This document shows positions 22,318-22,980 of a stretch of 64,000 bases of DNA, piece after piece; position 1 is the first letter of the stretch; each line of letters starts with the position of its first letter. Source of the DNA: a virus (taxonomy: Duplodnaviria; Caudoviricetes); IMG/VR virus record IMGVR_UViG_3300011268_000751, positions 1 through 64,000 of that record. One strand, written 5' to 3'. The translations under genes were made by a program, and so were the position numbers. The notes beneath the pieces are model-generated. The model did not search any database and was not told the DNA's origin. It saw only the letters and a program-made list of their open reading frames with translations.

Positions 22318-22350
22318 AGGAGAATTTTCCCATATCTTATATTTATTTTA

Positions 22351-22423
22351 TGCTCCTTGCGTGGATCGAACACGCCTCAGGCGAATTATGAGTTCGCTGC
22401 ATTCACCAGATTGCTAAAGGAGC
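22351..22423 (-). tRNA. tRNA with CAU anticodon, probably tRNA-Ile2 (lysidine); no encoded CCA
   Basis: GCTCCTT/AAGGAGC acceptor, GCGAA-CTCATAA-TTCGC anticodon arm, GCGTG-TTCGATC-CACGC T arm; C4:G69 and C5:G68 present; lacks initiator features. Confidence 0.9.
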
Positions 22424-22426
22424 ATA

Positions 22427-22514
22427 TAGTCGCCCAGGGTATCGAACCCTGCCAAAGGCCCTAATCTGGGGCAAAGGGCTTATAAGGCCCCTCTGAACAC
22501 CTGTTCTGACGACC
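22427..22514 (-). tRNA. non-canonical tRNA-like gene, anticodon UAU, long variable arm, 4-nt D-loop
   Basis: GGTCGTC/GGCGACT acceptor with A73; GAAC-AGGT-GTTC D arm; GGGGC-CTTATAA-GCCCT anticodon arm; 23-nt variable region; CAGGG-TTCGATA-CCCTG T arm. Confidence 0.7.
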
Positions 22515-22527
22515 ATAAACTAGATCA

Positions 22528-22556
22528 ATTATAGAGGATCTGGAACTCTTTGTCAA
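22528..22556 (-). promoter_or_regulatory. consensus sigma70 promoter TTGACA-17-TATAAT driving the tRNA pair
   Basis: Perfect boxes at 22551-22556 and 22528-22533; predicted +1 a few nt upstream of the tRNA at 22514. Confidence 0.9.
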
Positions 22557-22735
22557 CTACCTTCTTCGTGATCCGTGTGTATTCGAATCAGGTCGTCAAC
22601 TTCCTTATACTCTTCATAAGGAATCAGCATAGCATCTCCATATTCACTTTTGATAAGGAAGGATTGACCTGCCTCAACCTTATCAAGGTATTCTTCAAAG
22701 TTTTCTTGTAATTCTTCAATCGTTAGAGTTTTCAT
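22553..22735 (-). CDS. Phd/YefM antitoxin-like small protein
   Basis: MKTLTIEELQENFEEYLDKVEAGQSFLIK matches the Phd N-terminal pattern; start reassigned to 22735. Confidence 0.65.
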   Translation of the reverse strand: MKTLTIEELQENFEEYLDKVEAGQSFLIKSEYGDAMLIPYEEYKEVDDLIRIHTDHEEGS

Positions 22736-22925
22736 AGATTGCAAGATCGGCATACTCGATTTGTTCTGGAGACAGATTGCTGGTTACAACTTCCAGCACG
22801 TTCATAAATTCTTGAGTTGTATCACATTCAACCATGAGCTCACTTCCTTTATCACTCAGCAGAAGAAAAGATTTACTGCAAAGATCAATCACAATACCTT
22901 GGACGCATTCTTGTGTGGCGCTCAT
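22716..22925 (-). CDS. conserved hypothetical cyanophage-type protein
   Basis: VIDLCSKSFLLLSDKG...VECDTTQEFMNVL; directly downstream of a consensus promoter. Confidence 0.8.
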   Translation of the reverse strand: MSATQECVQGIVIDLCSKSFLLLSDKGSELMVECDTTQEFMNVLEVVTSNLSPEQIEYADLAIYENSND

Positions 22926-22951: not shown

Positions 22952-22980
22952 ATTATAGGGGGTCCTGGCGCTGGTGTCAA
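22952..22980 (-). promoter_or_regulatory. consensus sigma70 promoter TTGACA-17-TATAAT
   Basis: Boxes at 22975-22980 and 22952-22957; -10 flanked by CCCCC/GGGGG inverted repeat. Confidence 0.9.

Follow-up and report, generated by a model that had tools for sequence, protein, structure and literature searches.

A conserved cyanophage tRNA with the anticodon UAU and an invariant GAU in its extra arm: probably an AUA-reading tRNA-Ile

Isoleucine tRNAs that carry the anticodon UAU are poorly served by the E. coli enzyme: IleRS charges UAU 360-fold worse than LAU, the tryptophan behind this discrimination is conserved in tilS-bearing bacteria, and a UAU tRNA on the E. coli ribosome reads AUG as well (PMC3575796). 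Mycoplasma mobile has solved the charging problem by means of a changed IleRS (Arg865; PMC3575796), a way out that is closed to a phage, which cannot alter the host enzyme so. The cyanophage S-TIM5 carries a canonical 72-nt tRNA-Ile(UAU) in the order Phd-AT, tRNA-Ile(UAU), tRNA-Met(CAU), tRNA-Leu(UAA). The locus described here has its own tRNA(UAU) at the corresponding point of that order, and the S-TIM5 tRNA likewise has G1·U72 and A73.

The window, i.e. the whole 64,000-nt stretch of viral DNA (Caudoviricetes) that was analyzed, corresponds to positions 1 to 64,000 of IMG/VR record IMGVR_UViG_3300011268_000751. The RNA gene and its parts are the following.

22427..22514, minus strand: compact tRNA(UAU), 88 nt from G1 to A73 (ARAGORN, fold and covariation; alignment A1)
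22495..22506, minus strand: mini D-arm, stem GAAC/GUUC (4 bp) and loop AGGU (4 nt); 2 of 4 stem pairs covary
22475..22491, minus strand: decoding anticodon arm, 5-bp stem and loop CUUAUAA; all 4 variable stem pairs covary
22458..22472, minus strand: extra arm, stem GCCC/GGGC (4 bp) and loop CAGAUUA (7 nt); the stem covaries
22452..22457, minus strand: conserved 6-nt linker CUUUGG between extra arm and T-stem (alignment A1)

An earlier note on this DNA had located the gene correctly without naming its strand; ARAGORN, one of the checks which that note had proposed, calls a tRNA-Ile(tat) on the minus strand at 22515..22426 and a tRNA(cat) directly after it at 22424..22350, and G1 lies at 22514 and A73 at 22427. 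The RNA is indeed non-canonical and looks expressed, as had been read from the letters: the anticodon UAU (22484..22482, minus strand), the long extra arm, the 4-nt D-loop, the G·U pairs and A73 are all there. Its acceptor stem has 7 bp, including G1·U72 and U6·G67, and is followed by no encoded CCA in the window copy; A8 alone links it to the D-arm, and the T-arm is normal, with a 5-bp stem. The variable region comprises the 23 nt previously claimed, in the succession UU, GCCC, CAGAUUA, GGGC, CUUUGG, and its loop displays a second triplet, GAU, at 22466..22464 (minus strand). The minimum-energy fold is the cloverleaf (-38.1 kcal/mol, z = -2.7, with none of 200 shuffles equally good). The Rfam tRNA model (RF00005, gathering threshold 29 bits) does not match the gene even at E <= 10, and no Rfam family was found for it at gathering thresholds or at E <= 10. 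This tRNA(UAU) and the tRNA(CAU) next to it are the only tRNAs in the whole 75-kb viral contig.

Homologues were collected by three IMG/VR pattern scans, of which one was built around the extra arm and two around the D-arm, and by BLAST against phage isolates. The yield was 176 loci with 89 distinct sequences; besides viral contigs, the sources include four cyanophage isolates, the Synechococcus phages S-SRM01, S-SKS1, S-CBWM1 and DSL-LC02, in all of which the gene is unannotated. For S-SRM01, 11 tRNAs were published on the basis of tRNAscan-SE 2.0, and the tRNA(UAU) with the GAU arm is not among these (PMC8557907). As both tRNAscan-SE and the Rfam model pass over this widespread class, the number of AUA decoders comes out too low in inventories of phage tRNAs and in analyses of codon supply. 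When 185,579 species genomes were scanned with a pattern, 11 matches came back, all due to chance and none tRNA-like.

The covariance check that had been set beforehand came out in favor of the cloverleaf. Across 46 distinct homologues, standard pairing is found in 99.0% of cells, against 39-46% with slid partners, and compensatory changes on both sides occur at 17 of 27 pairs and in every helix, the extra arm included, so that all five helices are supported. The D-stem, for instance, changes from C-G to A-U and from U-A to C-G while the GG of the D-loop is conserved. Pair 1:72 is G·U in 43 of the 46, G-C in two and A-U in one. The base after the acceptor stem is invariantly A, and this A is the discriminator, A73, because in 46 of the 176 genes an encoded CCA follows it directly; base -1, by contrast, may be T, A, C or G. 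For these two reasons the extra pair and 8/5 fold formerly entertained have to be given up. The anticodon is UAU in all 82 unique sequences picked by the D-arm, a set unbiased for both loops, within a loop CUUAUAA or near variants of it; it is also UAU in the 76 of 76 kept loci picked by the extra arm, where every tRNA-like match in the raw listing has TTATA. The anticodon played no part in choosing either set. The RNA with the UAU anticodon and the GAU arm is thus a real, strongly conserved cyanophage tRNA. The literature that we searched holds no description of this architecture, which is a new structural variant of tRNA-Ile(UAU) relative to the published record.

Some members of the family depart from the common pattern. 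Ten loci (L146, L189, L194, L201, L202, L207, L235, L239, L256 and L267) have a T-loop AUCGUNA for UUCGANN, a joint swap of U54·A58 to A54·U58 that looks like covariation of the reverse-Hoogsteen pair. Two copies are truncated: in L158 (~4411, plus strand) the gene ends after the UAU arm and then runs into tRNA(CAU), and in L236 (~2099, plus strand; contig of 178,563 bp) only the first ~26 nt, the acceptor 5' strand and the D-arm, are left. In one subgroup CUUGA takes the place of the linker CUUUGG.

What stands out most in the family, and was missed by the earlier note, is a GAU that never varies in the 7-nt extra-arm loop. The stem of this arm has 4-5 bp and its loop always 7 nt, with the consensus Y-N-G-A-U-N-R over two forms of the gene; positions 1, 2, 6 and 7 vary and only GAU is fixed, in 82 of 82 sequences of the compact form (loops CAGAUUA in 73, CCGAUUA in 4, CAGAUCA in 3, CGGAUUA and UAGAUGG in 1 each) and in 17 of 17 of a sister form with a canonical D-arm (CAGAUUA, CUGAUUA, CAGAUAA, UAGAUAA, UAGAUGG, UAGAUUG). 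The latter, 17 distinct genes of 89-93 nt to which the DSL-LC02 copy belongs, emerged from a scan for a canonical D-arm plus UAU, which also returned many ordinary class I tRNA-Ile(UAU). Its D-arm is a textbook one (U8, A9, 4-bp stem, 8-nt loop, G26), a like hairpin stands in its variable region, 97.4% of its cells are paired and 18 of 25 pairs show compensatory changes. The extra-arm loop looks like an anticodon loop that bears the anticodon of the major tRNA-Ile. The sole exception seen is L353 (~2526, minus strand), a canonical-D-arm tRNA(UAU) with a long variable-region hairpin whose loop lacks GAU. In giant-virus MAG (GVMAG) contigs (L275, L287, L298, L307, L341 and others) the same D-arm and UAU pattern caught tRNA-Ile(UAU) genes that are interrupted after position 37 by introns of eukaryotic style; these genes are unrelated to the GAU-arm family.

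Several further ideas about the arm were tried and abandoned. A helix CAGAG/CUUUG enclosing both hairpins is broken by the CUUGA subgroup and by L058 and L080 (CCGAG) and shows no covariation; a loop pair 33-37 that would leave a GAU triloop is contradicted by the combinations A·C, C·U and A·G; and pairing of the extra-arm loop with the D-loop motif AAUCUG of tRNA(CAU) fails since that motif is missing from common tRNA(CAU) variants. The suggestion that the loop never has U33 or A37, being disarmed for decoding, is refuted by the sister loops CUGAUUA, CAGAUAA and UAGAUAA; U33 and A37 together were seen in no sequence.

The genes around the tRNA(UAU) form a small group on the same strand.

22716..22925, minus strand: DUF7294 ORF, 69 aa, first gene of a small early-looking unit (PF23966, E = 4e-17)
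22553..22753, minus strand: Phd/YefM-like ORF, 66 aa (PF02604, E = 1e-6, 28.9 bits, just below the 29.8-bit cut-off)
22528..22556, minus strand: sigma-70-type promoter TTGACA-17-TATAAT, 12/12 match
22351..22423, minus strand: tRNA(CAU), co-transcribed, 3 nt downstream of tRNA(UAU) (Rfam tRNA model, 52.5 bits)

Their order in the window is thus DUF7294, Phd/YefM-like ORF, promoter, compact tRNA(UAU) and tRNA(CAU), the promoter being overlapped by the 3' end of the Phd/YefM-like ORF. That the tRNA(UAU) is the first product of a perfect sigma70 promoter had been proposed before and holds: the -10 hexamer ends 13 nt before G1, and a promoter of at least 10/12 with its -10 ending 12-16 nt before G1 is seen again in 45 of the 150 distinct regions upstream of homologues, compared with 1 of 150 shuffled ones. 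A second 12/12 promoter lies at 22980..22952 (minus strand). The segment 22553-22925 (minus strand) is an early-looking unit amid tail-fibre genes, each of its ORFs behind a 12/12 sigma-70 promoter. A homologue of the Phd-like ORF stands directly upstream in 74 of 160 loci, at a median gap of 41 nt. The Phd/YefM-like ORF of the unit is an orphan antitoxin ORF, and no toxin gene adjoins the two ORFs; the observation covers L136:960-1124 as well.

On the downstream side, tRNA(CAU) follows tRNA(UAU) in ~85 of 165 loci, often with tRNA-Leu(UAA) next, and it is one of the most widespread cyanophage tRNAs. The window tRNA(CAU) has C4:G69 and C5:G68, which we take to be the determinants for E. coli TilS, but its homologues are not uniform at 4:69 and 5:68. 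GenBank labels for this tRNA differ (Met, Ile2 or OTHER), and in S-SRM01 the call of tRNAscan-SE 2.0 is Met (PMC8557907). Of the tRNA-Leu(UAA) genes called in these loci, roughly half measure only 73-78 nt (L002:1806-1882, L003:2262-2334 and many others) and must, because of that length, do without a long extra arm. A long extra arm is present in all bacterial tRNA-Leu; the short form, which has G1·U72 and A73 in S-SKS1, may be a class I-bodied Leu tRNA. In eight loci (L089, L118, L124, L170, L173, L190, L213 and L242) the GAU-arm tRNA(UAU) has a canonical class I tRNA-Ile(UAU) less than 1.5 kb away, which hints that the two are not simply redundant.

What AUA means in these phages was judged from aligned proteins. 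The phage has 36% G+C and uses AUA 352 times in the long ORFs of the window, a frequency of 19.7 per 1000 codons; roughly one Ile codon in four is AUA. When the window proteins were aligned to homologues in the fetched loci, leaving out homologue codons that are themselves AUA, the pairs opposite AUA were I 37.8%, L 14.4% and V 14.1%, those opposite AUU I 45.8%, V 20.8% and L 11.3%, and those opposite UUA L 49.6% and I 8.9%. The plurality residue over 88 window AUA sites was I in 38.6%, V in 15.9% and L in 10.2%, and the strictly conserved AUA sites were all I (4 of 4). A wider test on 1,410 ORFs from 176 tRNA-bearing loci (9,108 alignments) gave 353 conserved columns opposite AUA with I 64%, V 15% and L 12%; the corresponding columns for AUU gave I in 86% and those for Leu codons L in 95%. 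In this larger set conservation is lower at AUA than at AUU or AUC, the L/V ratio at AUA is no higher than at AUU or AUC, and Ser is absent from the residues aligned with AUA. By the measure of these alignments AUA means isoleucine in these phages; it aligns with Ile and the L/V ratio is not raised, so that there is no recoding of AUA, and systematic mistranslation, the other role put forward for this candidate, is not supported.

The best reading of these observations is probably that the RNA is an AUA-reading tRNA-Ile, charged with isoleucine by the host IleRS and independent of TilS. Its decoding loop (Y32, U33, U36, A37) fits both decoding and t6A, and the compact form keeps the IleRS-identity residues A73, A35, U36, A37 and A38. 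While A73 is compatible with Ile identity, other determinants of E. coli IleRS are missing from the compact body, namely U12-A23, G16, U20 and U21 of the D-loop and C29-G41 of the decoding arm (PMC9976931). We infer that processing, charging with isoleucine and TilS independence would come about as follows: the strong sigma-70-type promoter of the gene would yield a co-transcript of tRNA(UAU) and tRNA(CAU), from which RNase P and 3' trimming would free the tRNA(UAU) for a host enzyme to add CCA; host IleRS would then charge it with isoleucine, and U34 would let it read AUA without lysidine and therefore without dependence on host TilS. Such TilS-free decoding would serve a phage of 36% G+C in which AUA makes up 2% of codons. 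A speculative role for the neighboring tRNA(CAU), if it is a Met tRNA, is to compete against misreading of AUG. The body is best explained as a compact derivative of the phage tRNA-Ile(UAU) lineage, which likely passed from the canonical form through a hairpin-added form to the form with the mini D-arm.

The poor charging of UAU by IleRS provides a rationale for an aid to charging. IleRS is, to our knowledge, the one protein that reads G34-A35-U36 in a 7-nt loop, and hence the invariant GAU hairpin may be such an aid in cis: as a tentative and rather doubtful extension, the extra arm could be a mimic of the tRNA-Ile(GAU) anticodon arm that recruits or activates host IleRS, the UAU arm being left for the ribosome to read. 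G34-A35-U36 do belong to the identity set of IleRS (PMC9976931). A nearly invariant pair in the extra arm (62 of 63) resembles C29:G41, and we give it little weight because the phage tRNA-Ile(GAU) genes of the same loci do not all have C29:G41. Against the mimic stand three points: position 37 of the extra-arm loop is usually U rather than the A that bears t6A, canonical UAU tRNAs without an extra arm occur in cyanophages, and class I synthetases are generally taken to leave the variable region of their tRNA turned toward the solvent. Should IleRS read the hairpin, this would be the first natural tRNA whose synthetase identity and codon reading reside on different anticodon-like loops. That would offer a principle of use in engineering tRNAs that are orthogonal or hard to charge, and a clean case in which to test how phages evade the anticodon discrimination of a host synthetase. 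Should it not, the invariant triplet would still require a binding partner.

The alternative that survives best, improbable as we consider it, is that the RNA is a decoy or sponge rather than mainly a decoder, presenting its UAU and GAU loops to a host anticodon nuclease, to the toxin of a toxin-antitoxin pair or to IleRS, whereby host tRNA-Ile would be protected or charging tuned. Two Ile-type loops on one RNA, a strong early-type promoter, the Phd/YefM-like antitoxin gene directly upstream in the 74 loci and the eight loci that also hold a canonical tRNA-Ile(UAU) are all in keeping with such a function. The family is nonetheless built like a working tRNA in its acceptor stem, A73, T-loop and D-loop GG, as well as in the CCA encoded by the 46 genes, and the UAU loop retains every feature needed on the ribosome; moreover, no toxin or nuclease partner was identified, and the same Phd-like gene adjoins the canonical tRNA in S-TIM5.

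We assign a still smaller chance to the proposal that the extra arm makes the RNA a substrate of LeuRS, or SerRS, so that Leu (or Ser) is deliberately inserted at AUA. Precedents exist, in that nematode nev-tRNA-Ile(UAU) is charged only with Leu (PMC3333845) and UAU is a predominant anticodon of allo-tRNAs (PMC5389517), and the long extra arm together with A73 is what the proposal would lead one to expect. In the commonest compact form the D-arm region and acceptor stem are nearest to phage tRNA-Leu, with Leu tRNAs accounting for 21 of the 40 top-ranking matches; over the full length a tRNA-Leu(UAA) matches best, and UAU is one base away from UAA. Descent from tRNA-Leu(UAA), which this form suggested, was not seen for the window subtype or the canonical-D-arm form. 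The codon evidence nevertheless weighs against insertion of either residue, AUA being aligned with Ile without a Leu-specific excess and not being avoided. As for serine, SerRS substrates are marked by a G73 discriminator, which the enzyme prefers, and a long extra arm, and the discriminator here is A73 throughout. Neither bacterial LeuRS nor bacterial SerRS reads the loop sequence of the extra arm, as far as we know, which is why the invariant GAU finds no explanation under this proposal. The sister form, furthermore, has a D-arm of class I type, and in S-TIM5 it is a canonical tRNA-Ile(UAU) that occupies the corresponding position among the genes. Bacterial LeuRS, finally, needs the tertiary pair U8-A14 (PMC2377443), whereas the window body has A8 and, with a D-loop NGGU, no A14, and the anticodon is invariant, unlike those of allo-tRNAs.

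That the sequence is a functionless, decaying or chance tRNA-like one, as its lack of an Rfam score, its escape from tRNAscan-SE 2.0 in S-SRM01 and the truncated copies in L158 and L236 might suggest and as the earlier note had allowed, is excluded by the covariation for practical purposes: the family numbers 176 loci (89 unique sequences), 99% of cells pair, no helix lacks compensatory changes, the anticodon is invariant and the promoter is conserved.

Set beside the known classes, the AUA-reading tRNA-Ile that we favor resembles tRNA-Sec solely in its 4-nt D-loop. tRNA-Sec, with its 8/5 arrangement, has an 8-bp acceptor stem, a 6-bp D-stem and the anticodon UCA; here there are 7 bp plus A73, a 4-bp D-stem and UAU, and with a 7/5 arrangement of acceptor and T-stem the description of the body as Sec-like cannot be maintained. 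The likeness to allo-tRNAs, also drawn previously, extends to being non-canonical, to the long extra arm and to UAU, which is among their commonest anticodons, and it ends at the body plan: allo-tRNAs have 8/4 or 9/3 acceptor/T branches and very diverse anticodons (PMC5389517), in contrast to the 7/5 seen here, with compensatory changes in both stems, and the single invariant anticodon. With class II tRNA-Leu the RNA shares A73, lacking both the U8-A14 pair (PMC2377443) and a codon that behaves as Leu; the combination of G73 and long extra arm that defines tRNA-Ser is absent, A73 being found throughout. The nematode nev-tRNA-Ile(UAU) comes closer, with a long extra arm, UAU and possibly an ancestry in tRNA-Leu; nev-tRNAs, though, are eukaryotic, keep their tRNA-Leu body and are charged with Leu (PMC3333845), while the cyanophage RNA has lost the Leu-type core (U8-A14) and has an extra-arm loop under sequence constraint, and AUA sites behave as Ile.

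Two features of a TilS-independent tRNA-Ile with U34 are, on the other hand, present: UAU lies in a loop fit for decoding (Y32, U33, A37) and AUA means Ile in the genome. In this the RNA is like Mycoplasma mobile tRNA-Ile2 (PMC3575796) and S-TIM5 tRNA-Ile(UAU), in which UAU reads AUA in company with A73 and a t6A-compatible loop, and with S-TIM5 it has in common both the succession of Phd-like gene, tRNA(UAU) and tRNA(CAU) and G1·U72. Those two are ordinary class I tRNAs of 72-77 nt, as opposed to the mini D-arm and the 15-nt hairpin showing GAU that are found here. For that hairpin the nearest parallels are of another kind. The E. coli thrS operator is an anticodon-arm mimic on an mRNA that is read by an aminoacyl-tRNA synthetase. 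A yeast mRNA mimic of an anticodon arm for HisRS appears among the work cited in PMC9976931. What the extra arm has in common with these is a hairpin whose 7-nt loop displays a cognate anticodon triplet outside a decoding context; the thrS and HisRS mimics sit in mRNAs and regulate translation, whereas the putative mimic described here sits on the tRNA itself.
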